A stretch of 53,541 nt of DNA from an uncultured Methanosarcinales archaeon (GCA_964535955.1 CAZHVK010000001.1:62001-115541), one strand, 5' to 3'; positions 14,787 to 50,295 are shown, counted from the stretch's first letter. The notes: generated from the letters alone by a model not told the origin. Numbers and translations are program-made.

Positions 14787-14959
14787 TTGGTGAAACCCCC
14801 TCGTTCACCTACTCTAATTACTATAATCACTAATAGAGCACCTACTATAATCTAATGAGGATTAATAGTGGTTCACTTGTCAGAAATTTGGAAAATTTCT
14901 GATCATGCTCATAAATGCTTTGCATTTATGACAGGCCTAACAGGCGGAGGTTTCACCAA
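14787..14959 (-). repeat. Structured intergenic multi-stem element, copy B (contains a nested dumbbell)
   Basis: Terminal inverted repeat TTGGTGAAACC / GGTTTCACCAA. Internal TCGTTCA and GTTCACT^GGCCTAACAGGC motifs shared with 32901, 43683 and 50178. Confidence 0.85.
14878..14933. repeat. Double-hairpin (dumbbell) element nested in copy B
   Basis: TGTCAGAAATTT gga AAATTTCTGA TCATGC TCATAAATGC ttt GCATTTATGACA. Confidence 0.85.
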
Positions 14960-14962
14960 TAT

Positions 14963-15976
14963 TTACTTAAACAAATAACCTAATGTAAAACCACAGCCAT
15001 AACTAAATTGTGTTAAGAATATGCATATCCATGTTGCTGGAATCTCGAAGAATTTTGAGTTTCTGATTGCACTTAATAAGATTATTAAAAAATAAAATGC
15101 GAGTATTAATATATAGGCTGCTTCTATAAATGGATGTAAAAAAGATGCAATAAATCCGTAAACCACAAATAAAAAAAATTCACTAGGAATTACATAATAT
15201 AAATTAAGAGTCTGTTTTCTTTTGTATAATTTGCCTTTGTAGAGTCCATAGTAAAAGAATTGTTTCATGAATGGTATGAATATCTTTCTTCTGTGATGGT
15301 AAACAATTACTTTTGGTGAATAAATTATCTTTAGGTCTTGGTTTATAATGTCTGCACAGAGTTTTGCATCTTCTCCTGTGACAAGGTTTTCATCAAATCT
15401 TATTTTTTTGAATAATGAATTTTTTACAATAAGATTGCATGTTGGTAATTCATTGATGAATTGCTGAGAACAGATTCTAGTACGAACATATGCTTTGCCC
15501 ATGGCAAGCTTGCTTTTCATAACATTTCCTGCTATTCTTTGGATATATGGATCTTTAGGAGGTGTTAGGTTTGGACCCCCAACTGCACCAATCTTTTTTT
15601 TTGAAAAAAAAGGTATTGCATTCTTTAGCCAATCTGTTTTTGGAAATGCATCATCATCAATAAAAGCAATGAATTCTGCTGTTCTTGATGCACTTTTGAC
15701 ACCTATGTTTCTTTTTATAGGAATGTTAAAATTGCCTGTAGGTATAATTTTTATTTTTATTGTTTTTCTTTTTTTTTGTTTTCTTATGTGTTTGTTTAAC
15801 TTATTTATCTGTGTTTGAAATGTATGTGAAATACCTGTATCAGGCAAAAGTACAATCTCGAAATTATTATAATCTAGTTTAAAACAATTAGTTATAGATT
15901 CTAATAAATAAGGATTTTCTTGTTTAAATACAATAACAATTGAAATCAATGGTTGTCTTACAGGATACTGTTTCAT
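14963..15976 (-). CDS. GT2 glycosyltransferase with C-terminal TM helices
   Basis: KRNIGV, FIAFIDDDAFP, VGGPNL and TGEDAKL motifs. Confidence 0.9.
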   Translation of the reverse strand: MKQYPVRQPLISIVIVFKQENPYLLESITNCFKLDYNNFEIVLLPDTGISHTFQTQINKLNKHIRKQKKRKTIKIKIIPTGNFNIPIKRNIGVKSASRTAEFIAFIDDDAFPKTDWLKNAIPFFSKKKIGAVGGPNLTPPKDPYIQRIAGNVMKSKLAMGKAYVRTRICSQQFINELPTCNLIVKNSLFKKIRFDENLVTGEDAKLCADIINQDLKIIYSPKVIVYHHRRKIFIPFMKQFFYYGLYKGKLYKRKQTLNLYYVIPSEFFLFVVYGFIASFLHPFIEAAYILILAFYFLIILLSAIRNSKFFEIPATWICIFLTQFSYGCGFTLGYLFK

Positions 15977-17508
15977 CTTTTGCCAACCCCCTTAACAAAA
16001 TAAATATTTACATTTCCTTTGCTATATACTTTTCTGAATTTTGAAAAATTATACTTAAGTTTGTCTAGTGACTTGTTGCTGTCATTGTATGTCAATATTG
16101 TGTTTATCTTGTCTTCTTTTATGAATTTTTTTAGATTAGGAAATGGGTATTTAGTAAAATAATGTCTCCAAATCTTTTTATTAAAATAAGGAGGTCTTGG
16201 ATAAGAATGAAAATCAAATGCAATGTGATGTGTAAAATAAGCAATCTCAGCACCAAGATTGAATGGTATAGAGAGAACCTTTAATTGTTTTTTTTGTTTT
16301 GATAGCCAAGTTATTCCATCAGATATATCTTTATGGTACTTGTCTGTTGTGATTACAATGTAATAATATAATATTATTAATGCTAGTTCAAATAAGAAGA
16401 TTATTATAATGGAAATGACAATTGATTTGTTTAATGAGTTTGATATCATGAATGCAAGTATGATTGAAAATGGGACAAGTGCATGATTAACATATCTTTC
16501 TGCTTGGCCTAAGAAAAGCAATGGTTTTAGTGATGTTAATAAAAATAAAATTAATGTTGATACAAACCAGATTAATAGTAAGAATAAGATTTGTGATTTA
16601 AATATAATGATATTTTTATTTATTAACCAAAAAAATAAAATAATTGTAGGCATATGTGTTAATAAGATCAAGTATGAATTGTTTGATAAAAATGTGTGTG
16701 CTGCTTTTTTAGGATCTTTTATCAAATCAATTGGTAGTATGAGGACATCTTTAAGTTTGTTTCTTTTTCCTAAATAATCTTTTGCCAAGACTTTGTAAAA
16801 AAAATATGAGTTTAAGATGTATGCTTTGATTAATGTGATTATTCTTGCTTCTGAAATTGCAATAGCTACTAAAAATGATAATATCAATAATAATAAAAAC
16901 CAGATCTTTAGTGTCATGATTGAAATTATGATTGAAGTAAATACTAGGACTTGTAATGCAAATCTTGCTGTTATAAAGATTAATGAAGCAAATAATATAG
17001 AGATAAAGAAAAATGAATAATTTTTAGAAGATATAAAAATGACCATACAAAGGTAGGAGATATTAAAAAATAAACGTGCAACAGGTCTTTGGCTAATATT
17101 AAAAATTCCTTCACCTTGCATAAGCAAAAGTGGTGTTGTTGAATAAATAAGAGATGCTAACAAAGCTGTTGTTGGGTTATTCATATAGTAATATGTGAAT
17201 ACAAAAATAAGAAGACTGTTTAATGAAAAGAAAAATGGACTGATATAGTCACCAATCTTTCTAAGAGATTTTTTTGGTAAATATGAAAGAATGTAATACA
17301 TAAGGTATGGATATTCAAATTTGCCAGGGCAGATTGTTTGCTTGTATTTTTTTGGTATTTTGTGTTTGTTTTTTTTGAATTCTTTAATACCAAGATAATG
17401 TCCCATTGGATCGCTTTCTCTTGTGCCTGGGCTTATCCATCTAGGAATAATAGCTAATAAAAATGGAACAAAAAATGAGATTAATCCAAATATTATTATT
17501 GAATTCAT
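15973..17508 (-). CDS. Polytopic membrane protein, GT-C-like
   Basis: About 10-11 hydrophobic segments, an N-terminal loop (ESDPMGHY...YPYLMYYILS), an ERY motif and a soluble C-terminal domain. Confidence 0.6.
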   Translation of the reverse strand: MNSIIIFGLISFFVPFLLAIIPRWISPGTRESDPMGHYLGIKEFKKNKHKIPKKYKQTICPGKFEYPYLMYYILSYLPKKSLRKIGDYISPFFFSLNSLLIFVFTYYYMNNPTTALLASLIYSTTPLLLMQGEGIFNISQRPVARLFFNISYLCMVIFISSKNYSFFFISILFASLIFITARFALQVLVFTSIIISIMTLKIWFLLLLILSFLVAIAISEARIITLIKAYILNSYFFYKVLAKDYLGKRNKLKDVLILPIDLIKDPKKAAHTFLSNNSYLILLTHMPTIILFFWLINKNIIIFKSQILFLLLIWFVSTLILFLLTSLKPLLFLGQAERYVNHALVPFSIILAFMISNSLNKSIVISIIIIFLFELALIILYYYIVITTDKYHKDISDGITWLSKQKKQLKVLSIPFNLGAEIAYFTHHIAFDFHSYPRPPYFNKKIWRHYFTKYPFPNLKKFIKEDKINTILTYNDSNKSLDKLKYNFSKFRKVYSKGNVNIYFVKGVGKR

Positions 17509-17564
17509 AAAAATTTGAATAAATAATGGGTATATAAATTTAATTAAACTCTAGAACAATATAG

Positions 17565-17733
17565 AGAAATATAGAAATACATAGAAATATAGAAATGCAT
17601 AGAAATATAGAAATACATAGAAATATAGAAATACATAGAAATATAGAAATACATAGAAATATAGAAATGTAGAAATATAGAAATACATAGAAATATAGAA
17701 ATACATAGAAATATAGAAATGTAGAAATATAGA
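17565..17733. repeat. Intergenic tandem repeat of AGAAAT cores (about 19) with alternating AT and ACAT/GCAT/GT linkers (about 18-bp higher-order period)
   Basis: Directly visible: agaaat-at-agaaat-acat-agaaat-at-agaaat-gcat... Confidence 0.95.
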
Positions 17734-17856
17734 CACCATACACATACACACTAATAATAACAATAAAATTTATATATAAACAAATTCTATATCATATTTA
17801 CAATCAAATCAAAAAAAGCTCATAAAAGGAGAATCAAATTAAAGTTTTCTATTAGT

Positions 17857-18996
17857 GTGTTTGTTATTATAATCATAATTGTGTTTTTGTTAGGTGCAAT
17901 GGTTTATAGAAATAAAGAAAGTGTTCCTGGGATTGATTATGTCAGATCTGTATTTGGATTTGATAAATTAGGACCAAATACTGAACAAATATGTGACCAT
18001 AGTGTTCCTGAAAATCATAAAACAGATGCTATTGATGTTTTGAATAATGGTAATGATAATGATAAAGGTGTTGATGATAGTAATAGAGATGATGCTGATA
18101 TAAAATACCCTTATACTTTTATTGTGTTTGGTGATACTTCAGAACCAGCTGGTATTGAAAAAGATATGATTATTGATAAGATTGTGGATGAAGCACCTCT
18201 ATTTGTTATACATACAGGTGATATGGTTAAGAATGGTGATGCACATCAATGGAAAATATTTGATCTGTCTGAAGGACAGATATTAGATAATGATATTGAC
18301 CTTTACCCTGTTCTTGGTAATCATGATTATTGTACTACATATGATGAAGAACCATTATCATATTATTTTGACAGGTTTGATTTTTTAGAAGAAAGAAGAT
18401 GGTATTACTTTACATATGGAAATAGTATGTTTATTATGCTTGACAGTAATTTAGATTATTCTGAAGGAAGTGAACAGTATAATTGGTTGGTTGATGTCTT
18501 GGCAAAAGAATCTTATGAATCTGATGATTCTCTTAATCCTGATGCATCTCCTCTTCCTAAGCATGTATTCCTAAGTCTTCATCACCCTGTTTATTCAAAA
18601 GGGTGGCATGATGTTCGTGAATATGAAAAAGATTTAGGTGTTTTGTTAGAAAGTTATACTGAAAATAATCAAATAAAACCTAATATTGTTTTCTCAGGGC
18701 ATAATCATAATTATGAAAGATATGTTTCTAATGATATTAATTATATTGTGACTGGTGGTGGTGGTGGACAGCAATATAAAGTTGATAGAGATGTTGATGA
18801 TCTCTATAATAAGCCTGGTGATATTTATCATTATTCTAAGGTTACTGTGTTTGAAGACAAGGTTGAATTTGAAATGGTTAAAATAAATAAAGATGGAGAT
18901 TTAGAAGAAAATGAAAACTCTGATGATTGGAATTGGGTAGTTGATGATAATTTTGTTATTTCTGGTGGTGTTGTTTATTTTATTCGATTATTATAA
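17857..18996 (+). CDS. Membrane-anchored calcineurin-like metallophosphoesterase (purple acid phosphatase-like)
   Basis: N-terminal TM segment. FGD, HTGD, GNHD, HHP and SGHNH motifs. The true start may lie further upstream. Confidence 0.9.
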   Translation: MFVIIIIIVFLLGAMVYRNKESVPGIDYVRSVFGFDKLGPNTEQICDHSVPENHKTDAIDVLNNGNDNDKGVDDSNRDDADIKYPYTFIVFGDTSEPAGIEKDMIIDKIVDEAPLFVIHTGDMVKNGDAHQWKIFDLSEGQILDNDIDLYPVLGNHDYCTTYDEEPLSYYFDRFDFLEERRWYYFTYGNSMFIMLDSNLDYSEGSEQYNWLVDVLAKESYESDDSLNPDASPLPKHVFLSLHHPVYSKGWHDVREYEKDLGVLLESYTENNQIKPNIVFSGHNHNYERYVSNDINYIVTGGGGGQQYKVDRDVDDLYNKPGDIYHYSKVTVFEDKVEFEMVKINKDGDLEENENSDDWNWVVDDNFVISGGVVYFIRLL

Positions 18997-19078
18997 AATA
19001 TAAATTTTAAATAAAAAAAGAAGAAAATGAAGAGTTAAATACAAAGTATTTTTTTAATAATTATGTAAATGTCTTTTA

Positions 19079-19744
19079 TCATTTTCCTTCTTTGTTGATT
19101 TCTTTTATTTGCACTGGAATCCTTCCTTTTTGTATCCAAATCAAATCATTTTTTCCCACAACTCTTGCAGGAGTTCCTACAACAATTTCATTAGGTAATA
19201 CTTCTTTTAAACAAATAGAATTAGCACCGATTACAGCGTTGTCACCAATTGTAATACCTCCCATAATCCTTGCTCCTGTATAAATTGTAACATTATCTTT
19301 AATTACAGGAAATTTACGGTCTAATCCTGTTTTAAGACCAAATAATACATCTTTAAAGACATGGCAATTCTTTCCTATTTTAGTATTTCCTCCTATAAGT
19401 AACCCCTGACAATGATGTATAAATATTCCTGGTTCAATGTCAGCGTACAATGATATTTCTGCTCCACCGTTAAGAATGAAATTTAATCTAAAACATAAAC
19501 ATTCTAATAATTTATAGTATTTTAATTTTAATTTACTTGAATTGTTAAAAGATTTTTTTAGATAATATTGACTTAATCTAAAAAGTACTGTACAAGAATA
19601 TGTGGATGATAATAATGCATCTTTTAAATACCCTATCTTAAATTTACCTCTATGTCCTTGGTATTCATCTATTGTAAAAGCATGGGTAAATGTTTTGCAT
19701 ATATTTGTTGGACAGTCCCAATCTTTATCTTCTTGTTTTTTCAT
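19079..19744 (-). CDS. Hexapeptide-repeat O-acetyltransferase (CysE/WcaB-like)
   Basis: AEISLYADIEPGIFIHH and PVIKDNVTIYTGARIMGGITIGDNAVIGANS...VVGTPAR motifs. Confidence 0.88.
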   Translation of the reverse strand: MKKQEDKDWDCPTNICKTFTHAFTIDEYQGHRGKFKIGYLKDALLSSTYSCTVLFRLSQYYLKKSFNNSSKLKLKYYKLLECLCFRLNFILNGGAEISLYADIEPGIFIHHCQGLLIGGNTKIGKNCHVFKDVLFGLKTGLDRKFPVIKDNVTIYTGARIMGGITIGDNAVIGANSICLKEVLPNEIVVGTPARVVGKNDLIWIQKGRIPVQIKEINKEGK

Positions 19745-20310
19745 TTTTCAATTACCCAATCTATGAATGTTATATAATTAGGTATAAAATGTCCTATCCA
19801 TTTACATTTTATAGGTGCAAACCTCGAATAATGTATTTTCTTGTATACTATTTTAAATGGCTCTATTTTAAGTGTCACCATAAAATCTAATATCCCTTCT
19901 ATAATATCATAACTAAAATAATGTATATGTGTCATATCAGAATACCCTCTTGGATGATTATAAAAAGGAACCTGTATTTCTATTTTTCCACCTTTCTTTA
20001 ATATCCTATGAAACTCCATAAGCAAATCAAAAGGTTGAACAATATGTTCTAACACGTTCAAACACTTAATTTCATCTACTGAATCAGATTTAAAAGGTAA
20101 TGGTAACTCGTCTAAATCAACTTTCATGTCTGTTTCATCTAAATCATATTTATCAATATTTAACCAGTTTCCTACATGTCTTTCTTGTCCACCACACTTA
20201 ATCCTTACTTTATTATCATTTTTCCATTCTTTGGTTTTAATTCTATTGTTTCTGTTAAATTCTTTAATCTTTGCATATCTCTTGTATGCTTGGTCATTGT
20301 TATGTATCAT
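19741..20310 (-). CDS. Class I methyltransferase domain protein (degenerate motif I)
   Basis: WLNID, LPFKSDSVDEI, NVLEHI, RILKKGG and DMTH motifs. GGAGGTG RBS. Confidence 0.8.
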   Translation of the reverse strand: MIHNNDQAYKRYAKIKEFNRNNRIKTKEWKNDNKVRIKCGGQERHVGNWLNIDKYDLDETDMKVDLDELPLPFKSDSVDEIKCLNVLEHIVQPFDLLMEFHRILKKGGKIEIQVPFYNHPRGYSDMTHIHYFSYDIIEGILDFMVTLKIEPFKIVYKKIHYSRFAPIKCKWIGHFIPNYITFIDWVIEK

Positions 20311-20466
20311 TTTTCACCTCCTTTGTCTTGTTCTTTTTTGTAACACATATCAGAACAATATCCATTATCTGTTTCTATTACTTTCACTGTACAACAATAG
20401 ATACAATTTTTTTTATTGAGGTATGTAAATTTATGTATATCTTCTTTATATATGTTTCTATTTAAA

Positions 20467-20966
20467 GTAATTATTTAGTATCCTGAAGGATTATTTAGGA
20501 TACTATGCATTCCTTTGAGCACATTCTGTTTATTAAGCCTTAATGTTTGAATTACTGATAGCAACATTGCTGTTGCATTTGCTCCCATTGTACTTCTAGA
20601 ACCATTGCTTATCTTTCTTATAATTACTAATGCTCTTAATTCTCTTTCACTTATATTATTTGTGGGGTCAATATTAGGGTTAGTTACAAACCTAAACAAA
20701 TTCTCAACATCACAATTGTACAAATTTTTAACAAATTTCCAGACTGTCAAATGTTTATAATGCATTTGAGTAAGCTGAAATATTTCTCATTTAATCTGCT
20801 CAACCATCTCAGGATTTCCTTTATGCTCCAACACTTTGGCAAGAGCATATATCTCCTTAAGTTTTCTATGAACATATTTTCCATTAGCTCCGTAATTCTC
20901 AGCAAGCTCTTTTGAATTTTGGGGTATATGCGACCAGCACAGTTGAAGTAGGAATCCTGCATTATA
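20467..20966 (-). mobile_element. IS66-family remnant: right end plus a truncated transposase
   Basis: Transposase motifs QLCWSH and PTNNISERELR...RKISNGSRS. Candidate terminal repeat GTAATTATTTAG at 20467-20478. No left end was found. Confidence 0.75.
20475..20966 (-). pseudogene. IS66 transposase pseudogene, 5' truncated with one in-frame TGA
   Basis: The frame reads NAGFLLQLCWSHIPQNSKELAE...MVEQIK*EIFQLTQMHYKH..., with TGA at 20789-20787 in frame with ORF 20475..20765. Confidence 0.85.
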
Positions 20967-20997
20967 TCACTCAGATTTTATATTGTGCCAAAGTAAA

Positions 20998-21012
20998 GAA
21001 ATGTTTATATAC
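20998..21012 (+). promoter_or_regulatory. Archaeal BRE/TATA promoter of the SGNH gene
   Basis: GAAATGTTTATATAC about 30 nt before the ATG at 21040. Confidence 0.5.
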
Positions 21013-21039
21013 TCTACTTAGTTTCGAAGTCTGAAAATA

Positions 21040-22440
21040 ATGAAAAGAGATAATAGACAAAACAAGTATAAGAAATATAATAGGCAAAATACACAAAAGC
21101 CTAGGATGATTGTTGATGTTAAATTAAAAGATTCTATTAAAAGATATCATGCCTTAATAGGAAGTCTCATTAGTGGTATCTTGTTCTACTTATTATTGGT
21201 AGTATTATATTCTAATCTTGGTGGAGGGCATTTTGAAATCAAAATTAAATTCCTAATATATTTATTTATTTTATTTATAATAATACATCAATTGTTTATT
21301 ATATTTGTTTTAAGAAGAATTAAGGATATAAAAAACTTTTATAAAAATATATGCTTAACAATAATAATTTTTATTGTGTGCGTAATAATAATGATAATTA
21401 GCCTACAGTTTATTCTCCCAGATTCTATGGTTTTTACACATAGACAATGTGATAAATTATTTCACCACTCTTTTATTCCAAACTCAAAAGGAGTTGAATT
21501 TAATTCTGCTGAGGAATTTGAAACAAATTATGTAATTAATAGTATGGGTTTTAGAGATAAAGAGTATAACTTTAAAAAATGTAAACATTGTTTTAGGATA
21601 TTAATGGTTGGAGATTCATTTACAGAAGGAGGTGGGGTACAGGAAAACGAAAGTTTTTCTAATTTAATTGAAGTGGAATTAAATAAGTTATATAATACAG
21701 AAATAGAAGTCATAAATACTGGAATTAGTTCAAATAGTGTAGTTTTAGAATATTTAATGCTAAAATATAAATTAATTAATCTAGAACCAGATATGGTCGT
21801 ATTAAATATAGATATAAGTGATATAATGCAGGATTCTGCTTATCTTAAGGAAGCTACTTTTTCAAGTAATATGGAATTAATGGCTATTAATGGTTGTGGT
21901 GTAACAGAAAAAGATTATAAAATCGAAAATATTTTTAATGTGAAATTCTTTAAATTATTAAATAATATTGCAGATAAAATAATTATTAAATTAGGTATCA
22001 AAATGAAAACAGTAACAAGATATCCTAAAAAAGATATTATGATCACAAATAATAATTATTTAGTCTCTAACATCAAAGAAGTAAATGAATATTGGGATAC
22101 AACTTTTATATATTTAGAACAAATTGTAAATATTACCAAGACTAATAATGTAGATTTAATAATAGTAACTTATCCTTGGGGGCACCAAATTAGCAAAGAT
22201 GAGTGGTCAGAAGGTAGAAAAGCATTTGGTTTCGAAGAAAATAAAATTTATTCACTTAATCCACAAAGAAGAATAATGAGTTTTTGCAAAAAAAAAGATT
22301 TAACCTATTTAGATATAAGTGAGAAATTTATTGAGAGTAAACAAAAGAATTATTATACTTATGATATGCATTGGAATAAAAGAGGACATGTTATTGCTTC
22401 AGAAGCTATGGTTCCAGTAATAATAGAAAATATAGAATGA
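21040..22440 (+). CDS. Membrane-anchored SGNH/GDSL hydrolase (AlgX/AlgJ-like)
   Basis: 3 N-terminal TM segments. INSMGFRD, GDSFTEG, EVINTG and DMHWNKRGH motifs. Confidence 0.88.
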   Translation: MKRDNRQNKYKKYNRQNTQKPRMIVDVKLKDSIKRYHALIGSLISGILFYLLLVVLYSNLGGGHFEIKIKFLIYLFILFIIIHQLFIIFVLRRIKDIKNFYKNICLTIIIFIVCVIIMIISLQFILPDSMVFTHRQCDKLFHHSFIPNSKGVEFNSAEEFETNYVINSMGFRDKEYNFKKCKHCFRILMVGDSFTEGGGVQENESFSNLIEVELNKLYNTEIEVINTGISSNSVVLEYLMLKYKLINLEPDMVVLNIDISDIMQDSAYLKEATFSSNMELMAINGCGVTEKDYKIENIFNVKFFKLLNNIADKIIIKLGIKMKTVTRYPKKDIMITNNNYLVSNIKEVNEYWDTTFIYLEQIVNITKTNNVDLIIVTYPWGHQISKDEWSEGRKAFGFEENKIYSLNPQRRIMSFCKKKDLTYLDISEKFIESKQKNYYTYDMHWNKRGHVIASEAMVPVIIENIE

Positions 22441-23495: not shown

Positions 23496-23539
23496 GATGG
23501 ATAATGAAAATAAACAAAAGAATAAAAAATAGAAATAAT

Positions 23540-24275: not shown

Positions 24276-24285
24276 TGTTTTGTGT

Positions 24286-25035: not shown

Positions 25036-25061
25036 TTTTAATAGATTCTGGAACAAAGGAA

Positions 25062-25078: not shown

Positions 25079-25122
25079 AAATTTCATTTGTGAGGAATAT
25101 GATGAGAAGTAATGTGTATATG

Positions 25123-32049: not shown

Positions 32050-32052
32050 AAA

Positions 32053-32900: not shown

Positions 32901-33086
32901 TGGCACTGCTGAAACCCACCGTTCACCCACTCTATGTGATTATGATGAAAAATAGAGTGCTGTACTGTCTGACGAATTGAACCAGGGTTCACTGGCCAAT
33001 TTGTCAGAAATTTGTTGGTTCACAAATTTCTGATCATGATCATAAATGCCTTGCATTTATGACAGTCTAGGGTTTCACCAGAGCCA
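32901..33086 (-). repeat. Structured intergenic multi-stem element, copy C (contains a nested dumbbell)
   Basis: Terminal inverted repeat TGGCACTGCTGAAACCC / GGGTTTCACCAGAGCCA (2 mismatches). Internal CCGTTCA, CACTCTAT/ATAGAGTG stem and GTTCACTGGCC. Confidence 0.85.
33002..33064. repeat. Double-hairpin (dumbbell) element nested in copy C
   Basis: TGTCAGAAATTTGT tggttc ACAAATTTCTGA TCATGA TCATAAATGC ctt GCATTTATGACA. Confidence 0.85.
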
Positions 33087-39954: not shown

Positions 39955-39966
39955 GTTGGTAGAAAT

Positions 39967-41268: not shown

Positions 41269-41273
41269 TGGAG

Positions 41274-41909
41274 TTAAGGTTTTCTTAGCCATTTAACACC
41301 TAAGTAACACAAAGGTGTATCGATCAATGCAAAGATTACCTTGAATAGCCAATAAGGAATTATTAAACTAATTATGAACATTGTGTTGAATTCTGGTGTT
41401 ATGTTATAAAATGCAATAAACATGAAAATTATTGTATCAATTAACTGACTTGCCATTGTTGAAACATTGTTTCTTAGCCATAAATATTTACCATGTGTTT
41501 TTTGTTTTAAAAAATGAAATACCCACACATCGTGAAATTGGCTAATTACAAAAGCAATTACACTAGCAATTGTCATTCTTAAGCTAGCCCCGAATACTGA
41601 TATAAAAGCTGCCTGATTGTTCCATATTTCGTTTACAGGAAGTTTTATTGCGACATATGTCATTAATAAAGTGAATAAAAGTGTAACTATAGAAATATAA
41701 ACAAAGAATTTTGCTTTTTTCTTACCATATACTTCATTAACAATATCTGTTATAAGAAATAAAAGAGGTATGAAGAAAATTCCAACAGAAATCCTTACAC
41801 CAAACAAATTTGTTATCTTTGTTCCTAATGTGTTTGCAAGAACCAATGAAACTACAAACAATCCTAATAGAATCAATACTTTGTTTTCATCATATTTTAA
41901 TTTCATCAT
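41274..41909 (-). CDS. yhhQ: Queuosine-precursor (preQ0/preQ1) transporter, YhhQ/Vut_1 family
   Basis: TDIVNEVYG, RMTIAS, LWLRNNVSTMASQLIDT and K...DTP motifs. Confidence 0.9.
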   Translation of the reverse strand: MMKLKYDENKVLILLGLFVVSLVLANTLGTKITNLFGVRISVGIFFIPLLFLITDIVNEVYGKKKAKFFVYISIVTLLFTLLMTYVAIKLPVNEIWNNQAAFISVFGASLRMTIASVIAFVISQFHDVWVFHFLKQKTHGKYLWLRNNVSTMASQLIDTIIFMFIAFYNITPEFNTMFIISLIIPYWLFKVIFALIDTPLCYLGVKWLRKP

Positions 41910-41920
41910 GCTTTACAACT

Positions 41921-42772
41921 CTAATATAAGATGTTCTTTAAAAATCTTTTCAATTTATTTCTAATTAATTTCATCACAAAAACAATTATTTGAACATTGT
42001 TAGGTGAATAATAGATAGGTGCGTTTGTAGTTGAAGGTTGATTATTTAAATAATCTGCTTTATTGTTTATAATATCCAAACACACTTCTGCTGGCCATTT
42101 AGCACATTCCACAAAACCCTTTTCTCTGTTTTTGTTATAAGAAAAATTAATTGTCTTAAAACAACCTCTTCTTAAAACAATTCCTCCATCAAGTCTTTCA
42201 GTAAGTCTTTGCAAAATGCATCCTGTAATAGGATCATCATAATAGATTTCCCAAAAAGCGGCAAGAATTCCTCTATATTTCCTTTCATCACCAAAATGAA
42301 ATGACCAAAGACCATAACGAGGTATTTTTAATATTTTTCCTCTAATTATACCAAAACTTAGTACAAGTATAAAATCAAGATCATATTTTTGTATTTCTTT
42401 TAAATCTTTCTTTTTGAAATATTGAGAATATTTTCCTTTTTTCACAACTTTACATCTTAATCTTGGAACGTCAGATAATAGTTTACTTAAACTTATTGTT
42501 TTAATTGAATGAGGTTTGAAGAAAAAATGCCAATAAAAAGTAGTGATCAAATTTTTAAATTTCGTATTTTTTATCACAATTAATATTCTCTCAAGAAGTG
42601 TTCTCCTTTTTTCCCTCTTCTCCTCATCAATAATTAATAATTTAACCTTTACATTTTCTAATTTTAAAAGGTTTGTAATACATTTTGCTTTCCACAATTG
42701 AAATCTTGTTCCACTGCACATAATACCACAATGCATGTTACTATTTTTCTTTTTTTTCTTGTTTTTTTTCAC
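41921..42772 (-). CDS. Formyltransferase-domain protein (formyl_trans_N-like)
   Basis: PRYGLWSFHFGDERKYRG...FWE...GCILQRLTERLDGG. Confidence 0.75.
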   Translation of the reverse strand: MKKNKKKKKNSNMHCGIMCSGTRFQLWKAKCITNLLKLENVKVKLLIIDEEKREKRRTLLERILIVIKNTKFKNLITTFYWHFFFKPHSIKTISLSKLLSDVPRLRCKVVKKGKYSQYFKKKDLKEIQKYDLDFILVLSFGIIRGKILKIPRYGLWSFHFGDERKYRGILAAFWEIYYDDPITGCILQRLTERLDGGIVLRRGCFKTINFSYNKNREKGFVECAKWPAEVCLDIINNKADYLNNQPSTTNAPIYYSPNNVQIIVFVMKLIRNKLKRFLKNILY

Positions 42773-43668
42773 TTTGTACTCTCAATTGGTTTCCATATAT
42801 CAAGTAATGTTTTTGTCTGATCTTTTTTTACTTCTTTTTTTATTTTATACCATAAGTAGAGTTTTGCAGGAAACAACATAAGTGTGTACCACATTTCTCT
42901 TATTGATCTTGGATATGACCAGACCCAAATACTTCCATACCATAATTCTTTCCAAAATGTTCGCATCCTAGGTGGGTGTTTAAAATAATGTTCTATTTGG
43001 ATATAGCCACCTGTTGATCTTCTTTTCTGAAGAATCCAATCTGCAAATGTTGTAGGATATTTTACAAATACTTTTGCTTTTGGTGCATAATCTATCTTAT
43101 AATCTTTTTGCCATACCATGTGAGCCATTACTGCGTCATCGCTTAATGCATCTTCTGGAATCTTTGTAAATAGTTTTTTCATTGCAAAAAGATAACCTGA
43201 TACTAGTATGAACTCCTTCTTCCTAGACCTAATCAAACGAGTTTTGTGAGCACCAATGTCTGTTAAAAGATGAGACCAATAACCGAGCATCTTTGTTTTT
43301 GGTGATACTGATACTGGTCTACCTGTGACTGCTCCTGTTTTTGGGTCTTTTAGTTTGTTTAGAAGTTCTTTTATTGCATTATTACTTACATAGACATCAC
43401 CATCGCTAAGAATAAATATATTACCTTTTGCTTTTTTGAATAAAATGTTTAGTGCAGTTGGTTTTCCTTTTCTTGGATCTTTGAATGTTCTGATGTTTTT
43501 GTGTTTTTTTGAGTATGATCTCATAACTGCTAATGTTTCTTTGTCAGGTGCTATCAATAATATTTCCCATTTTAAACCTTTTAACTGTGGAAGAAACGAA
43601 TCTACTGCTTTACCAATTGTTCTTGGTTCTTTGTATGCTGCTATTAAGATTGATATTGTTTGGTTCAT
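42769..43668 (-). CDS. GT2 glycosyltransferase
   Basis: IAAYKE, GKPTALN, SDGD, SDD and QKRR motifs. Confidence 0.9.
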   Translation of the reverse strand: MNQTISILIAAYKEPRTIGKAVDSFLPQLKGLKWEILLIAPDKETLAVMRSYSKKHKNIRTFKDPRKGKPTALNILFKKAKGNIFILSDGDVYVSNNAIKELLNKLKDPKTGAVTGRPVSVSPKTKMLGYWSHLLTDIGAHKTRLIRSRKKEFILVSGYLFAMKKLFTKIPEDALSDDAVMAHMVWQKDYKIDYAPKAKVFVKYPTTFADWILQKRRSTGGYIQIEHYFKHPPRMRTFWKELWYGSIWVWSYPRSIREMWYTLMLFPAKLYLWYKIKKEVKKDQTKTLLDIWKPIESTK

Positions 43669-43682
43669 TTTTTTTCATTTTC

Positions 43683-43797
43683 ATAATGAAACTGTCTCGC
43701 TCAAACTTTCAATGTTTTTGTTATGGAGTTTTGAAAGCCCTGATTGTTTCACAATCTGATATGTTTTCGCTGGCCTTACAGGCAACAGTTTCATTAT
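43683..43797 (-). repeat. Structured intergenic multi-stem element, copy D
   Basis: Perfect 13-bp terminal inverted repeat ATAATGAAACTGT / ACAGTTTCATTAT. Internal TCGCTCA and TTCGCTGGCCTTACAGGC. Confidence 0.85.
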
Positions 43798-43798
43798 C

Positions 43799-46438
43799 TT
43801 ATTCAATTATTGTTATACTTTTAATCACAATATCTTCAACAGGTTTGCTATTTCCATCAACTTCACTATTTGCAATCTTATCAACAATATCCATACCCTT
43901 AACTACTTTACCAAATACTGCATGTTTATTGTCTAACCAAGATGTTTCAATTACAGTGATAAAGAATTGTGAACCCCCTGTGTTTGGTCCAGAGTTTGCC
44001 ATTGAAATTACTCCTCTATCATGTTTAAGATCTGGATGAAATTCATCATCTATTGTATATCCTGGTCCTCCACTACCATCACCACTAGGATCTCCACCTT
44101 GAATCATAAAGTCTTTGATAACTCTATGGAAAATAAGGTTGTTGTAAAAATTCTTTTCTACCAAGTCAATAAAGTTTTTTGTTGTAATTGGTGCTTTATC
44201 TTGTGCTAGTTCAATCTTTATATTTCCTAATTTTGTTTCGATCAATGCTATTTTGTTTTTTGTTTCTTCTGGTTGTTTTGTTTCGAGTTTTGTTTCATCT
44301 TGCATAGTATCATCCTCTAGATTTAGTTCATTATCAACATTGTCTTGTTGTTCTGTATCTTCTTGTTTATCTTCTTGTTTGTCTTCTTGTTTGTCTTCTT
44401 GTTTGTCTTCTTGTTTTGTGTCCTGTTCTGTTCTCACTTTTTTAAAAATAATATTGATAGGAATATCTTCCATTAATTGAGATCCAATAACTTTGTTTTG
44501 ATTAATATCAAATACAGTAACTGGAGCTAGTCTTTTTATGACTTTTACTTCTTTAAAACCAAGGTTGATGATTTCCTGGTATTGTTGGAACTGTGTATAA
44601 TCTAACTGCTCAATTGCTTGATTTGTTTGTGGATTGATTAATATAGCAAATGGCCATGTTCTTAAATTAGCCCATTGCGGTTGACCAGGCTCCCAAAAAT
44701 CAGGGTTAAGATAAACAACTTCAAAGTCTTGTGAATCAATGTAGTCAGAGAATTCCTGGATTGTCTTATACTTGTTAAAACTAGAAACTCTTCTTATATC
44801 TGGTTTGTTTAAACCAACATTATAATTACAGCATGCAAAATAATTCTTAACAACTAAATCATTGACATAAGTATCTGAGTTGTATTTGTAGTCTTCTGCA
44901 CTATGGCCTGTGATATTATCACCTTGTGGTTTTACATTTTCATAAACCCAGTCCATTGCTTCTATGTAACCTGAGTATGTAAATCTTCTGTCTTCGACTA
45001 ACTTATTTCCAAACCTGTAATAGGAACTTTTTATTTTCTCCATTTTAATTTCATCAGTATCATTTTCTGAAATTGGGACTCCAAAAAGAATTAATAAAAT
45101 TAACAAGATTTGAACTGAAATCATAATAATCTTAGAAATCTTAATGTTCTTACTAGTTTTAAAAAATAATAAGGCAAAATCTTTGATTTCTTCTAATATG
45201 ATCATAGATAGTATTAAGGAAAATGGTAAGATGGACATCATATATCTTACTTCTGGAATGCCTCCACTTGCACCAGATATAGATGAAAAAAACAAAAATA
45301 AATGTCCACCAATCAATAAAACATAATACTCTATCTTATTATAGAAAAAAGCTAACAATGTCCCTATTAAAGATAAAGTTATGATTGTTCCTCCTAATAA
45401 ATTACCCATTGTTTTGTATGTTGGTATTATAAAACTATATTTGCCTTGCTTGATAAAAGTTATTGATAAAAAACCCATAGGACTTTTTAAGAATAAGTAT
45501 GTGATTACAATAAGACAAACTATTACTGTTAATAAAATAGTTTTATTTTTTAATTTTGTTATGATATAATTTCTTAATTTTTTGTTTAAAAAAATGTTAA
45601 TAACAAAGACTAAACCAGCCAATATCCAGACAAAAAAACCTGATAATTTTGATAATGTTGTAAATATACCAAAGATTATCAATAATAATAAGTGTTTGTT
45701 CTTTAGCATTGGTTCATTATTATTAATGCTTTTTATCCATTTAACCAGATAATAAGATGAAGCAATCATTAATGCTGCGACTGGTACATCTAGTAATCCT
45801 TTCATTGTCAAGAAATAATACCAATGATTAAAACCTAGTAATGCAGCTGCTGCTAATCCTGTAAAGTCATTTTTTATTTCTTTTCCAAGTAAGTATGTAA
45901 ACAAGATTCCTAATAGTCCAAATAGTAAACCCATTATTCTGCCTGCTTTAAAACTTGTTGTGAAAAAATTAAGTATTGCTGTTATTGTAACAGGAAATAT
46001 AGAACCCCAGTTGCTCATTTTAGTGATGTGTGAGATTCCTTGTTTCAATAGTTGAGCATCCCAATTATAAGCTGTCTCATCTAGCCAGATTGAATCTATG
46101 AATAGATTGTTCCAATAAATGAAAAAAAAGATTATTAGTAGAACTAAGAAGGCAATATTCCATGGATTCTTTAGCCAGGTTATTGTTGACTTTTTTAGTT
46201 TGTCTAAGTTTAGTTTTTGTTTTTTTGGTTTGTGTGTTTTGTGTTCTTCTGGTTTGTGTTCTGTTGTTTGTGGTTTTTCTTTGTGTTCTTTGTTTTCTGG
46301 TTTGTGTGTTTCTGACTTATCTTCCTTGTGCTCTTTTGGTTTGTCATCTGTCTCATGCAGTTTTTCTTGATGTTCTATATGTTCTTTTTTTTGTTCTTGT
46401 TCTGGTTCTTTTATTTGATTATTATTTTCTTCTTGAAT
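43799..46438 (-). CDS. ArnT/PMT-like (GT-C) membrane glycosyltransferase fused to a C-terminal cyclophilin-type peptidyl-prolyl isomerase
   Basis: The frame is open 130 codons upstream of the listed TTG and includes a TM segment and [10 protein letters not shown]. The C-terminus has [30 protein letters not shown] and [10 protein letters not shown]. The start codon is uncertain (ATT). Confidence 0.85.
44358..44417 (-). repeat. In-frame 12-bp tandem repeat (KQED x5) in the linker before the cyclophilin domain
   Basis: Plus-strand unit tcttcttgtttg. Confidence 0.85.
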
Positions 46439-46457
46439 TTTAATCCCCTCTTATTGT

Positions 46458-46578
46458 ACTTAATTCAAAAATCCTATTACGTTTTGCTCGCTTTGCTCAC
46501 AAAACTTCATCTGGCCATGCCATCAATAACTATGTTATTGCTGTCATTGACGGCACAGACGGATATTTTGAATTAAGT
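46458..46578 (-). repeat. Structured intergenic element F, probably a divergent relative of copies B-E
   Basis: Terminal inverted repeat ACTTAATTCAAAA(ATCC) / (GGAT)ATTTTGAATTAAGT. Internal stems GTTTTG/CAAAAC and TGCCATCAAT/ATTGACGGCA. TTCATCTGGCC motif. Confidence 0.65.
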
Positions 46579-46581
46579 TTT

Positions 46582-48006
46582 TTATAATTTTTTTAATAAT
46601 CTTTTCATACCTAATTTAGTTATCAATGATCTTAACTTTAGGTAAAATGGTATTTTTATAAAGGTTTTGTCAAATAAGTCTAAATATGCTCTTAATGGTC
46701 TTGTGTCTTTGTATACTTCAAATCCAAACCTATCTCTTATCTTTTTTAATTGTCTTATTGAGATTGTTGGAAGTTTTATATTTGTTGATTGAAAATAGGA
46801 TTCTGCTGCTATATCTTTTATTATCCAGTTATTTTTTTCACAGAGTTTGTATAATCCTGTTCCTTTGTATGCATTGAATATTGACACTCCTACAAAATCA
46901 GGTTTGCATTTTTTGTTCAGTTCAATTGTTGCTTTTATTGTTTTTTTTGTTTCATATGGTAAGCCAACCATGTTAAATGAATATGTTTGTAATCCTACTT
47001 CTCTTGCCCAAGTAAATGTGTCTATTATCTGTTTTTCTGTCTGGTTTCTTTTCATAATTGTATTTCTTATGAATTCATCACCTGATTCAATTCCAATAGA
47101 AACTCTGTAGCACCCAGCATTTTGTAAGTGGATGAAATCTTGTTTTGTTACAGAACCTGCTCTTACATTGATATTAAATGGTATGTTAATTTGTTTTTTG
47201 TATTTTGTGCTGAATTCTTTTATTAATTGTTTGTTTAATGTAAATGTATCGTCATAGAATTCTATTTCCTTTATCTTTTCACCAAATTTGTCTTTGACTT
47301 GCTTTATTTCTTTAATAATTGAATCTGCTGTTCTAAATCTTAAGTATTTACCTAATCCTTTGTATTTTTTGAGAAGGTAGTTGTTAATACAATATGCACA
47401 GCCAAAAGGGCATCCTTTGGATGCAATAAAAGTTGCAATTCCTTTGTTATAGTTTAAGTATGTTTGATAGTTGAAAAGGTTTCTATCTGGGAATGGAAGT
47501 TTGTCTAAGTTCTGTTGTAATGGTCTTAAAGAGTTTTTCTTTATTTTTATGTTTCCTTTCTTGTCTTTTGTTTTAAACCATATGTTTTTGATATTTGTGT
47601 TAACTTTTGTCCTATTAATACTCTCAGCAAGTTCCAGCATAGGATATTCACCTTCACCAATACACACAGCATCAAAGCAATCTTGTTTAATTATGTCTTC
47701 TGGAGCAATAGTTGCGTGATAACCACCGCAGATAATTTTTGTGTTTGGGGATATTTGTTTTATTTGTTTACATATATGAATTGCATAGTGTAAGTCATTA
47801 GTTGCAGCTGTTATTGCTACTAAATCTGGTTTAAATTCCTTTAGTTTGTGTTTTATCTCTTGTTTTGTTATTCTGTGAAATGTTGAATCTAATAATTGTA
47901 CTTTGTGTTTGTTTTTTTTAAGTAATGCTGAGATTGATGCCAAGCCTATAGAAATATCTTTAGGTGATTCTACAATATTTGGGTAGATAAGTAAGATCTT
48001 TGTCAT
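46582..48006 (-). CDS. B12-binding domain radical SAM protein
   Basis: GGYHAT, GEGE, SKGCPFGCAYC, DDTF and GIESG motifs. Confidence 0.92.
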   Translation of the reverse strand: MTKILLIYPNIVESPKDISIGLASISALLKKNKHKVQLLDSTFHRITKQEIKHKLKEFKPDLVAITAATNDLHYAIHICKQIKQISPNTKIICGGYHATIAPEDIIKQDCFDAVCIGEGEYPMLELAESINRTKVNTNIKNIWFKTKDKKGNIKIKKNSLRPLQQNLDKLPFPDRNLFNYQTYLNYNKGIATFIASKGCPFGCAYCINNYLLKKYKGLGKYLRFRTADSIIKEIKQVKDKFGEKIKEIEFYDDTFTLNKQLIKEFSTKYKKQINIPFNINVRAGSVTKQDFIHLQNAGCYRVSIGIESGDEFIRNTIMKRNQTEKQIIDTFTWAREVGLQTYSFNMVGLPYETKKTIKATIELNKKCKPDFVGVSIFNAYKGTGLYKLCEKNNWIIKDIAAESYFQSTNIKLPTISIRQLKKIRDRFGFEVYKDTRPLRAYLDLFDKTFIKIPFYLKLRSLITKLGMKRLLKKL

Positions 48007-48142
48007 ATATATAGCAGGCTTAGTCTAACATATTTAAAGATATATGTGGTTTTGTTAAATATTTTCTTAAACATATAATTGATAAGATAGATGTTGGAGT
48101 ATGGTAATATTTAATAGATTATTATATTTCCTATTTAAATAA

Positions 48143-48829
48143 ATGAAAACAATGCACATAACAAAACCAATTGGAGAGAGAACCAGGTTATGCACTAAAG
48201 AAGAAGCAAAGGCTATGTTAGAGAAGATTGAAGTTAAGAAAGAAGTTGTTGTTAAAGAGAAAAAAGAAGTTAAAGGAAAAGTTGGTGGAGTAGAATTTAC
48301 AGGTGATGAAAATTTTGAGGAATTATGTGAAAAGATTGAAGCAGAACATGGTGATGAAGCAACTGAAAGAAAGAAATTAAAAGAATTGTTAAAACACCAA
48401 GCTAAAGATAAGAATCAGTCATTTGACTTAAATAATCATACATTAGTATTTTCTGAATACATGGCATTGACAGACTTTGCATGGAGATATTTTCAACAAA
48501 GTGCTGAAGATTATTTTACTAATTTTAATGATAAAAAACGACCTGTATTTCTTGAAATTGAAAATAAACATGTTAAATATTTAAGATTAGATTCGATTTT
48601 AAAAATGGGAAGAATTAATAAAGATAAAATCCCAATACATCTTAATCTACTCACCAAGGTCAAAGAGATATATTTAGGTAATAATAATATATCTAAGATT
48701 GAAAACCTAGATAATAATCTTGAACTGACATATGTTCATCTTAGTGGGAATAATATTGATTATAATGATCCTGATAATAAAAAAGAATATGATAAATTAA
48801 TTTCAAGAAAAGTACAGGTGGAAAAATGA
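48143..48829 (+). CDS. Hypothetical protein with a conserved N-terminal leader and C-terminal leucine-rich repeats
   Basis: LTKVKEIYLGNNNISKIENLDNNLELTYVHLSGNNI (SDS22-like LRR). Confidence 0.8.
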   Translation: MKTMHITKPIGERTRLCTKEEAKAMLEKIEVKKEVVVKEKKEVKGKVGGVEFTGDENFEELCEKIEAEHGDEATERKKLKELLKHQAKDKNQSFDLNNHTLVFSEYMALTDFAWRYFQQSAEDYFTNFNDKKRPVFLEIENKHVKYLRLDSILKMGRINKDKIPIHLNLLTKVKEIYLGNNNISKIENLDNNLELTYVHLSGNNIDYNDPDNKKEYDKLISRKVQVEK

Positions 48830-49509
48830 CAAACATAACAAAACCTTTGGGAGAGAGAAACAGACTTGTGAGTAAACAAGAAGCAAAAGCTATGTTGGAG
48901 AGATTAGATGAAGAAGAAAAAAAGAGAAAACCTAAACAAGAAAAACAACAAGCTGATGATGAAAAGTATGAAGGAAAAGTTGTTGGATCTGATGATGAGA
49001 AATATGAAAAACAAGAAATGAGTGAAGATGAAAAAGCATTAGAAGAATTGTATAAAAAGAATAATGAACTGAATAAAGAATTAGAAACACAGAAACGTGA
49101 AATTGAAAAAGATATAATAGAGAAAAAAGTAAAGATTGGAAAAGATAAAGGGCAGGTTTTTGATTCTATTGAAGATTTGGTTTGTGAGGTTCATCCTGGT
49201 GCTAAATATGTAGTTGTTGGTGTGATACCTGGTTCTTCAGATTATTTATACATACACAAAAAAAAGATTGGAGATCTTAACAGATATAGATGTGAAGAGT
49301 GTCCTGAGATTGGACATAATTGGGAGCCTGATCATGATACTGGTGTCTTAAAAGATGTTAGACCAAGAAAAGCATATGAATGTCATACTTGTGGAATTGT
49401 AAAGGGAGTAGTTATAAACAAAGAAAAAGATGATGGTTTATATGCTGAATATCTTTGTAAGGTTTGTGGACAACAAGTAGGAGCAGGTAGTGAGATTTAT
49501 ATTGAATAA
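48826..49509 (+). CDS. Hypothetical protein with the same N-terminal leader, a charged coiled coil and three CxxC motifs
   Basis: CEEC, CHTC and CKVC. ATGA overlap with the upstream gene. Confidence 0.8.
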   Translation: MTNITKPLGERNRLVSKQEAKAMLERLDEEEKKRKPKQEKQQADDEKYEGKVVGSDDEKYEKQEMSEDEKALEELYKKNNELNKELETQKREIEKDIIEKKVKIGKDKGQVFDSIEDLVCEVHPGAKYVVVGVIPGSSDYLYIHKKKIGDLNRYRCEECPEIGHNWEPDHDTGVLKDVRPRKAYECHTCGIVKGVVINKEKDDGLYAEYLCKVCGQQVGAGSEIYIE

Positions 49510-49523
49510 AGAAATACAAAACT

Positions 49524-50171
49524 TCACTCTTTCTTAGCCAAAACAGCCAAACTAACCTGATATTTTGGAAAGAATTTTGCAAACTTGTTTGTTCCAATCG
49601 GCAGATTGTCGTGGAAACTTATGCCAAAATATGTTGGATAAAATCTGATGACTTTGAAGCCTGCTTTGTTTAGGTCTTTTGTTAATTCTTTTCGAGTATA
49701 CTCTCTGAGATGATAACCACCTGGTCCTGAATGAATATAATATGGGATCTTAAACTCCTTACCAATTAATCTTCTAATATAATTTGCAATTCTGTGTCTG
49801 TTTGGTGTTGTGAGCATTAGATAACCATGTTTTTTAAGAACATAATTAAATTGTTTTAACATTGCAATCGGGTCTTTGACATGTTCAATAACTTCTGTAT
49901 TGATAACTGCATCAAATTTCTTCTCACCGAATGGTAGTCTGCATCCATCTCCTCCTATTCTATGGAATATTGTTGCTTTTGTTTTTACTTTTCTTAATGC
50001 ATCCAAGTCAATGTCTATTCCAATTACTTTTTTTATGTGTCTGTAAAGTCTATCTTGTAGTCCTGCTCTGCAACCTACATCTAAGACAAAGTCTGGCTTT
50101 GTTTTTTTCAGCATCTTCTCAACTGCACTTATTCTTCCTTCGTATACTCCTTTTTTCATTCTTTTTTCCAC
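49524..50171 (-). CDS. Class I SAM methyltransferase
   Basis: VLDVGC, FDAVINTEVIEHV, LTTPN and HLREYT motifs. The ATG at 50159 is an alternative start. Confidence 0.9.
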   Translation of the reverse strand: MEKRMKKGVYEGRISAVEKMLKKTKPDFVLDVGCRAGLQDRLYRHIKKVIGIDIDLDALRKVKTKATIFHRIGGDGCRLPFGEKKFDAVINTEVIEHVKDPIAMLKQFNYVLKKHGYLMLTTPNRHRIANYIRRLIGKEFKIPYYIHSGPGGYHLREYTRKELTKDLNKAGFKVIRFYPTYFGISFHDNLPIGTNKFAKFFPKYQVSLAVLAKKE

Positions 50172-50177
50172 TCCTTT

Positions 50178-50295
50178 AAATTATTCAACTCTTTCGTTCG
50201 TACTTTCCATGTTCAGCAATGATTCTTGGAAAGTCCTGATAGTGTGACCATCTGCTAGGTACTCACTGGCCTTACAGGCAAGAGTTGAATAATTT
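50178..50295 (-). repeat. Structured intergenic multi-stem element, copy E
   Basis: Perfect 16-bp terminal inverted repeat AAATTATTCAACTCTT / AAGAGTTGAATAATTT. Internal TCGTTCG, ACTTTCCA/TGGAAAGT stem and CTCACTGGCCTTACAGGC. Confidence 0.85.

Follow-up and report, generated by a model that had tools for sequence, protein, structure and literature searches.

A dispersed, probably MITE-like element with a covarying branched fold in the genome of an uncultivated archaeon

Single-strand transposition by HUH enzymes is not known to make target duplications, and neither the repetitive extragenic palindromic (REP) and REPIN sequences associated with RAYT proteins nor the palindrome-associated transposable elements (PATEs) of IS200/IS605 are known to have terminal inverted repeats or target duplications. 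Integron attC sites carry R''/R' boxes of the form RYYYAAC/GTTRRRY, and the stretch between their R and L boxes holds extrahelical bases and a central spacer that is left unpaired. One account recognises arrays of such sites where two or more lie within less than 4 kb of each other and the cassettes are short, and/or where an IntI with its extra domain is present (PMC9668308); IS200/IS605 elements are described as targeting the lagging-strand template (PMC5027513, PMC6006769). A census of MITEs (miniature transposable elements with inverted repeats) in 183,232 genomes lists a Woesearchaea genome with 105 MITEs per Mb among the most MITE-dense archaea, and the census passages dealing with it give no structural description of its MITEs (PMC11602168). 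Here we describe four related intergenic elements, B, C, D and E, in a 53,541-nucleotide stretch of DNA (the window; CAZHVK010000001.1:62001-115541 of assembly GCA_964535955.1, positions 62001-115541 of contig C1) from an uncultured archaeon. They are probably copies of a non-autonomous, MITE-like mobile DNA element whose single-strand fold is under selection and which is handled in that folded form.

The host genome (G000, 1.49 Mb, G+C 29%) carries an archaeal 16S rRNA gene and is 100% complete by marker genes. The first-pass annotation, made from the window alone, had delimited the four elements and described their common layout, and both were recovered when the sequence was re-read and searched with a covariance model. 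The element is non-coding and about 112 nt long, with a range of about 105–186 nt. Read on the minus strand, it begins with an outer stem, P1, directly adjoined by a mini-hairpin (GYCU-GUA-AGRC) and the junction bases CA; a helix GUGAG-NNN / NNN-CGAAC with two G.A pairs in its middle follows, and the junction bases GA lead into the return arm of P1. Within the G.A helix lie two more hairpins: a variable one with a UYGUAAGAC-like loop, and P4 (CUUUCNA..UNGAAAG or GCUCNAU..AUNGAGC), which stacks on the NNN pairs of the G.A helix. The architecture is thus a three-way junction comprising the mini-hairpin and the tandem G.A helix (GUGAG/CGAAC), followed by a second junction bearing two hairpins. 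P1 forms a terminal inverted repeat, is mostly 11–16 bp long and is 97.7% paired. As had been noted, the mini-hairpin stands beside the G.A helix, with a GTT loop in B and a disrupted form in C. The parts of each copy are collected in the table.

Coordinates of the four window copies, their parts and the nested modules (positions counted from the first nucleotide of the window)
Feature	Position	Strand or reading	Remark
Copy B, long form, 173 nt	14787..14959	minus	R1 model 41.1 bits
Copy B, P1	14946-14959 paired with 14787-14800		
Copy B, mini-hairpin	14935-14945		GTT loop
Copy B, nested palindromic two-hairpin module (TGTCA..TGA-GCATGA-TCA..TGACA)	14878..14933		between mini-hairpin and 5' core
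Copy B, 5' core AGTGAA	14872-14877		
Copy B, P4	14812-14838		
Copy B, 3' core TGAACGA	14801-14807		
Copy C, long and degenerate form, 186 nt	32901..33086	minus	R1 model 46.9 bits
Copy C, P1	33070-33086 paired with 32901-32917		mismatched; mini-hairpin disrupted
Copy C, nested palindromic two-hairpin module	33002..33064		inserted in mini-hairpin
Copy C, 5' core CAGTGAA	32988-32994		
Copy C, P4	32930-32957		
Copy C, 3' core TGAACGG	32919-32925		
Copy D, complete short form, 115 nt	43683..43797	minus	R1 model 107.4 bits
Copy D, P1	43784-43797 paired with 43683-43696	read on minus	
Copy D, mini-hairpin GCCTGTAAGGC	43773-43783	read on minus	
Copy D, 5' core CAGCGAA	43766-43772	read on minus	
Copy D, variable hairpin	43742-43756	read on minus	
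Copy D, P4	43706-43737	read on minus	
Copy D, 3' core TGAGCGA	43697-43703	read on minus	
Copy E, complete short form, 118 nt	50178..50295	minus	R1 model 103.1 bits
Copy E, P1	50280-50295 paired with 50178-50193		
Copy E, mini-hairpin	50269-50279		
Copy E, 5' core CAGTGAG	50262-50268		
Copy E, variable hairpin	50238-50252		
Copy E, P4	50203-50233		
Copy E, 3' core CGAACGA	50194-50200		

A simple motif search of the whole genome returned about 30 further copies. Alignment of 22 short copies with MAFFT and folding with RNAalifold gave 27 pairs, 23 of them changing on both sides, and a covariance model, R1, was built from these sequences. Run on the window with filters off, R1 finds exactly B, C, D and E (next match, E 0.52), and genome-wide it gives 56 matches at E<=0.01. 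Covariation was assessed on 49 aligned R1 matches (47 distinct sequences) from this genome, a sister species and public contigs. In this alignment, which was fitted to the model and favours structure, 98.3% of cells are complementary, against 72.7% in column shuffles and 25–45% when partners are slid by 1–3 columns; 25 of the 27 pairs change on both sides, none of 500 shuffles reaches any of five measures, and the independent MAFFT and RNAalifold result on 22 copies agrees. The tandem G.A columns are kept in 48–49 of the 49 rows. Pairing in all four helices is maintained through changes on both sides, and the covarying outer stems and tandem G.A helix proposed from four copies hold in this larger alignment. 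The most conserved part of the element is the internal branched fold of one strand and not its ends, unlike in ordinary MITEs.

The proposal that it is the minus strand that folds fared less evenly. Read on that strand, the alignment contains 1217 Watson–Crick cells, 24 G.U, 4 A.C and 18 others, which favours it; however, G.U makes up only 1.9% of paired cells, so that both strands could form nearly equal helices, and predicted free energies show no preference for minus over plus (−28.4 vs −28.8 kcal/mol for D, −36.4 vs −39.6 kcal/mol for E). The AAC/GTT triplet pointed out in the outer stems is present in all four window copies but in only 17 of the 51 genome copies with a delimitable arm.

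Evidence that the element inserts and is lost at the DNA level comes from comparison with related species. The 10 kb around D and E are colinear with the sister species G002, which has neither copy: the intergenic gaps at the two sites measure 17 and 20 nt there, against 124 and 158 nt in G000, and the D site is also empty in G003. Conversely, six copies of G002 and six of G003 and G001 lie at sites that are empty in G000. The suggestion that the elements mark or drive rearrangement of the glycan locus finds no support at D and E, where the colinear sister-species region differs simply in having neither copy. Flanking direct repeats scoring >=6 border 13 of the 56 copies, against 0.62 expected when flanks of different copies are paired. 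In one subfamily, the a-type (23 copies, with GTATGTGCATGG..CCATGCACATAC ends and no AAC), these duplications are 8–9 bp long and abut the inverted repeat exactly (TGTAAAAA, TTAATATA, TACTTTTT and GGTGAAAT, for example); one G003 copy is flanked on either side by TTAATTTTC, of which the empty G000 site has one diverged copy. In the other subfamilies the duplications are 11–15 bp long and sometimes offset by 1–3 bases, including a 15 bp repeat around a G002 copy whose matching G000 site is empty. We infer that intact duplications around diverged copies fit cut-and-paste movement of old lineages. The earlier description of the copies as REP/MITE-like substrates thus stands as far as empty orthologous sites, flanking duplications and patchy distribution go, and is unsupported as to the HUH or RAYT partner: Y1_Tnp has no match in this genome, and some copies have 8–15 bp duplications.

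Two further observations touch on mobility. Some 12.8 kb of contig C7 (G000:C7:27885-40733) are missing in G002 and G003, with the flanks otherwise colinear; both of those genomes carry an element near the junction, where G000 has a small unrelated hairpin. Integration of an island at an element was considered here and rejected, as this G000-only stretch does not abut an element site. Short GTTTCATAA-like sequences (cf. the 3' end of the AAC-type outer stem) recur in element flanks, for instance near C5:140208, C17:15931, C5:46713 and C4:116016 of G000, and in one case such a sequence itself forms the flanking repeat of 12 bp; they may have been left behind by earlier copies, or may be a target that insertion prefers.

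Where species share a filled site, resident copies exchange segments. At C1:4152, G000 and G002 have identical P1 and flanks with interiors of different type, and G003 has another P1. At C2:124115, the G000 and G001 copies are two compensated pairs apart in P4, and G003 combines the same P1 with another interior. Three species are at least six compensated pairs apart at C1:9671, across P1, the G.A helix and P4; at C8:42889 the flanks are nearly identical around elements only about 65% identical, with compensated changes, and at the site L101 adjacent two-base compensations are seen. Copies at shared sites are mosaics, outer stem and interior assorting independently at the same site in sister species, and the elements change faster than their flanks yet stay paired. 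Change of this kind can come from conversion between copies, from selection for the fold, or from template switching from one arm to the other during replication; such switching is reported to be able to fix several neighbouring pairs at once (PMC8794818).

The greater length of B and C is due to a separate palindromic module in each, and this nested insert also explains the low R1 score of B. The module belongs to a small repeat family of its own, about 50–60 nt long (about 55–63 nt in B and C) and nearly palindromic (TG-TCA..TGA-NCATGN-TCA..TGA-CA). The genome contains 26 modules: 11 in or within 80 nt of the 112-nt element, at differing internal positions, and 15 elsewhere. Besides the window, they occur on contigs C2, C5, C6, C8, C9, C15, C17 and C21. 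Modules inside elements show no obvious duplication. The mini-hairpin of C was destroyed by its module, and at L101 the module is present in G000 and not in G002.

R1 finds 14, 21 and 18 copies in the genus's three other species, 9 weaker ones in a single genome from another family, and no copy in the 36 other genomes of the same order that were searched. A broader model, R2, built from 73 sequences, has matches in 8 of 151 genomes from the order, which belong to seven families; it scored only 24 candidates per genome, so its copy numbers are lower bounds. Distant copies in G005 keep only P1 pairing, the mini-hairpin and CCAGUGAG..CGAACGA. Among metagenome contigs, 33 matches to the 18-nt core included two strong and two weak model matches, and among genome contigs 22 core matches included four strong and one weaker model match, the rest being chance. 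Viral contigs contained no exact match to the core, and phage and plasmid collections gave no blastn match to copy D. The view that this is not a described family was borne out in Rfam 15, where the window has no match at the gathering threshold and single copies give only chance-level matches (E 0.5 to 10); a literature search on MITEs of archaea and Woesearchaeota likewise returned no description of the element.

Solitary ends also occur. A lone CCATACACATAC, the a-type 3' end motif, stands at window positions 17736-17747 (G000:C1:79736) with the rest of the element absent, and solo or truncated ends are likewise found at C6:62046 and C2:112105; these may be remnants of excision or decay.

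The orientation of the copies was claimed to be constant. This is true of contig C1, where all 15 copies lie on one strand; genome-wide there is only a bias: judged against the GC skew of the 20 kb surrounding each G000 copy, with the element's own sequence left out, 41 of the 56 have their folding strand on the C-rich strand. The association with skew proposed for checking is found in the non-a copies, the window's subfamily, which point preferentially one way relative to GC skew: 27 of 33 are on the C-rich strand (binomial p=3e-4, a value overstated, like the other orientation p-values, since copies cluster on contigs and the counts are non-independent), and 17 of 18 where |skew|>=0.1. The trend recurs in the non-a copies of the sister species (23 to 9 in all, and 14 to 3 where skew is strong, with 3 kb flanks), but these are partly orthologous to the G000 copies and so not fully independent. 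On C1 itself the skew is strong, at +0.158, with 49% of genes on the plus strand. All copies are intergenic, and none lies inside a called ORF. Between co-oriented genes (n=34), 23 copies are sense to both neighbours and 11 antisense to both, C among the latter; a further 15 copies lie between divergent and 4 between convergent genes and are uninformative on orientation. In the 34 tandem-gene contexts the copies lie a median of 8 nt from the upstream stop codon, and within 13 nt in 20 of them. The covariation, the excess of G.U over A.C on one strand and an orientation that follows GC skew more than gene direction together support a constraint on a folded single strand that is largely independent of local transcription. 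Replication-related orientation bias is described for several insertion-sequence families of different mechanisms (PMC3971601); therefore, the orientation bias alone does not prove single-strand transposition.

In a mobile element of this kind, the copies would be processed as one folded strand, most likely DNA that the replication fork leaves single-stranded, and a structure-specific enzyme acting in trans would use the conserved junction as its handle. The stems would stay paired through selection on the fold or through replication template switching between the arms, and the orientation bias might arise at insertion or through more frequent loss of copies whose more stable strand lies on the exposed template. 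A copy just after a stop codon would probably be at most a passive hairpin in a read-through transcript.

A number of results weigh against this picture. Searches of the genome for a mobilising enzyme were negative: Y1_Tnp (PF01797) has no match, although control genomes match; TnpB has none; DDE_Tnp_1, Transposase_mut, ISL3 and rve have none; no reverse transcriptase was found, the sole weak RVT_1 match being a Trm5b-type methyltransferase; and there is no transposase-like multicopy protein family. No longer element with the same ends was detected, and three outer-stem types occurred outside known copies solely as solo or truncated ends. The majority of copies, 43 of 56, have no flanking duplication, several filled and empty pairs are not clean insertions, and duplication length varies between subfamilies, unlike that of a single classical transposase. 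No burst occurred recently: among G000 copies pairwise identity never exceeds 88%, with best matches at a median of 76%. In the a-type, 14 of 23 copies are on the C-rich strand, which is not significant, and by the usual convention the C-rich strand is the leading-strand template, not the exposed lagging-strand template used by IS200/IS605. Finally, compensated changes at shared sites could also reflect selection at the host level for an RNA function. The mobilising enzyme may lie outside this assembly.

The genome does encode five tyrosine recombinases, three of them XerA-like. The best of them score as archaeal XerA; none reaches the integron-integrase cut-off, and the IntI model is matched in two stretches that skip its middle. 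Over 151 genomes, a tally that includes G134 and G114 (flagged unpublished, with no conclusion depending on them), XerA-like copy number does not follow element presence, and the element-rich G005 and G094 have one match each. Two of the XerA-like genes, G000:C7:2692-3519 and C25:4171-4998, are paralogs with 69% identity, and one paralog lies 1.3 kb downstream of the element at C7:1251-1363. Close relatives at 69–71% identity occur in G003 and in G042 (another family), with identities of at most 51% in the other genomes searched; this distribution may reflect horizontally moving DNA.

The strongest competing account is that the element is chiefly a functional structured RNA that spread in the past and is now selected by the host, acting either in cis, where its place after stop codons would let it stabilise 3' ends or signal their processing in the manner of REP, or in trans, as a small RNA to which a protein binds at the tandem-G.A junction. 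Strand-specific pairing, with 24 G.U against 4 A.C, and the invariant tandem G.A would suit an RNA, as would the closeness of 20 of 34 tandem-context copies to the upstream stop codon and the 23 to 11 excess of sense copies. The junction core is conserved across families of the order, and copies at sites shared by two or three species pair through compensated changes where neighbouring intergenic DNA of G003 is unalignable. Yet 11 copies, window copy C included, lie antisense to both neighbours, orientation tracks GC skew better than gene direction, and no conserved flanking promoter can travel with the element. Among public sequencing runs none of RNA turned up for window positions 43300-50700, and four runs from the same studies placed no read on that region, a result with no bearing on expression. 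A family present in 8 of 151 genomes, at sites differing between sister species, is too patchy for a core RNA gene; the junction itself tolerates nested inserts in B, C and other copies, and G.U at 1.9% of paired cells is low for RNA families. We regard this account as unlikely. A minor chance is also left for a bolder form of the mobile reading, in which the AAC-type, to which all four window copies belong, would be a new structure-guided mobile element: a folded strand, either DNA or RNA copied back, would be inserted in one orientation at the fork, the double three-way-junction core serving as the handle, and copies would be overwritten in modules as a self-renewing pool and not as decaying relics. 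The enzyme class would be new to transposition, because searches for HUH, IntI, DDE transposase, TnpB and reverse transcriptase proteins gave none.

A recombination site in single-stranded DNA that belongs to a known system, whether REP/REPIN with RAYT, a PATE of IS200/IS605 or an attC-like site with a tyrosine recombinase, would account for structure kept while outer-stem sequence varies and for orientation biased relative to strand asymmetry, and the five recombinases, the AAC/GTT of the window copies and the arms of E, which by eye fit RYYYAAC/GTTRRRY, point the same way. Against it stand the absence of Y1_Tnp and TnpB from a marker-complete genome, the 8–15 bp flanking duplications, an outer stem that runs as one continuous helix where attC has an unpaired spacer and extrahelical bases, an AAC triplet limited to 17 of 51 arms, copies lying tens of kb apart and not in arrays with spacing below 4 kb, recombinases that fall short of the IntI cut-off and leave the middle of that model unmatched, and an XerA-like copy number independent of the element, which together make it quite improbable. 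More improbable still, to the point of being far-fetched, is a small RNA of catalytic or retro-mobile nature, in which a ribozyme-like three-way junction would cleave itself and be copied back to DNA in the manner of a retrozyme or SINE (short interspersed nuclear element). Its three-helix junction resembles the extended stem II of the hammerhead (UGAG..CGAA with tandem G.A), the duplications of 8 to 15 bp with sometimes 1–3 extra bases at the 3' junction recall target-primed reverse transcription, and highly diverged copies, some with intact duplications, are compatible with it. However, the CUGANGA core is absent, the sequence being CCAGUGAG; no ribozyme family of Rfam matches, even with limits relaxed to E<=5 to 10; the genome yielded no reverse transcriptase; there is no poly-A or other 3' tail; and the fixed 8–9 bp duplication of the GTATGTGCATGG-ended subfamily is typical of a transposase.

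The tiny genomes of DPANN archaea leave little space for selfish DNA, yet this genus, putatively one of theirs, carries 14–56 copies of an element whose ends drift while the internal fold is fixed, the reverse of the usual MITE pattern. Should the fold be a recognition handle, a structure-specific mobilising enzyme is still to be discovered; should it be kept by template switching, the family would be a natural example of stems maintained without function and a warning for covariation-based RNA discovery. Through its orientation bias the element is a strand-polar repeat from which the direction of replication might be read in uncultivated archaea. For annotation, the copies are best masked as repeats, and treated neither as RNA genes nor as markers of glycan-locus shuffling.

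Two other features of the window were recorded. Positions 46463-46577 hold a different structured repeat with inverted ends of about 17 bp (CTTAATTCAAAAATCC..GGATATTTTGAATTAAG; minus strand −46.6 kcal/mol), with 8 further blastn matches in G000 (C8, C9, C11, C15, C17) and about 30 in G003. On the minus strand, positions 43799-46048 contain a 749-aa ORF that combines an N-terminal PMT_2-like membrane glycosyltransferase region (weak, E 6.6e-4) with a C-terminal cyclophilin-type prolyl isomerase (E 2e-55).

Kink-turns, which bind L7Ae, have a three-nucleotide bulge directly 5' of tandem G.A, with a Watson–Crick C-stem opposite; here there is no bulge, and the G.A pairs are flanked on both sides by Watson–Crick pairs (columns 36-37/172-173 and 40-42/167-169), so a kink-turn was rejected. 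An alternative pairing of the mini-hairpin with the similar GUAAGAC loop was discarded as well, no covariation being visible by eye in the alignment of 22 copies. The type III hammerhead is alike in its three-helix junction, a helix extended by tandem sheared G.A (UGAG/CGAA) and a closing outer stem, and unlike in that the element has neither the CUGA uridine turn nor the cleavage-site context; with a core reading CCAGUGAG..CGAACGA instead of the CUGANGA and GAAA cores around three stems, and no Rfam match, hammerhead and other ribozymes were set aside.

Among single-strand DNA sites, integron attC, including those described in archaea (PMC9668308), are alike as folded single-strand sites with covarying stems whose structure is kept. 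Unlike them, the element has no R and L boxes with an unpaired spacer and extrahelical bases, forms no cassette arrays, has no recombinase with the IntI extra domain and is accompanied by duplications. The continuous outer stem, the spacing (4 copies in 53 kb), the type of recombinase and AAC in 17 of 51 arms ruled out an attC site or integron. REP/REPIN–RAYT sequences and IS200/IS605 with their PATEs resemble it in the apparent recognition of one strand's hairpin structure, in an orientation tied to replication asymmetry and in small intergenic copies. They differ in being simple hairpins, whereas the element is a double three-way junction with terminal inverted repeats, 8–15 bp duplications and its folding strand on the C-rich strand, in a genome with no Y1/HUH gene; a derivative of either system was rejected for the missing gene and for the inverted repeats and duplications.

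Hairpin-forming MITEs, such as Correia/NEMIS of Neisseria, enterobacterial ERIC and the SM-type elements of Sulfolobus, share the most with it: they are short, non-coding, intergenic and multicopy, with terminal inverted repeats, flanking duplications around part of the copies, polymorphism between filled and empty sites and dependence on an enzyme acting in trans. In its size, coding status, intergenic position, 56 matches, inverted repeats and filled and empty sites the element agrees with MITEs, and a parent insertion sequence or transposase was not found in this genome. It further departs from them in that its ends vary but stay complementary, conservation is highest at the interior junction, the pairing signature belongs to one strand, one subfamily is oriented according to GC skew and duplication length depends on the subfamily. 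Overall, the family itself matches no Rfam entry, and the hairpin-forming MITE is the closest known kind, and the one that the element works most like.

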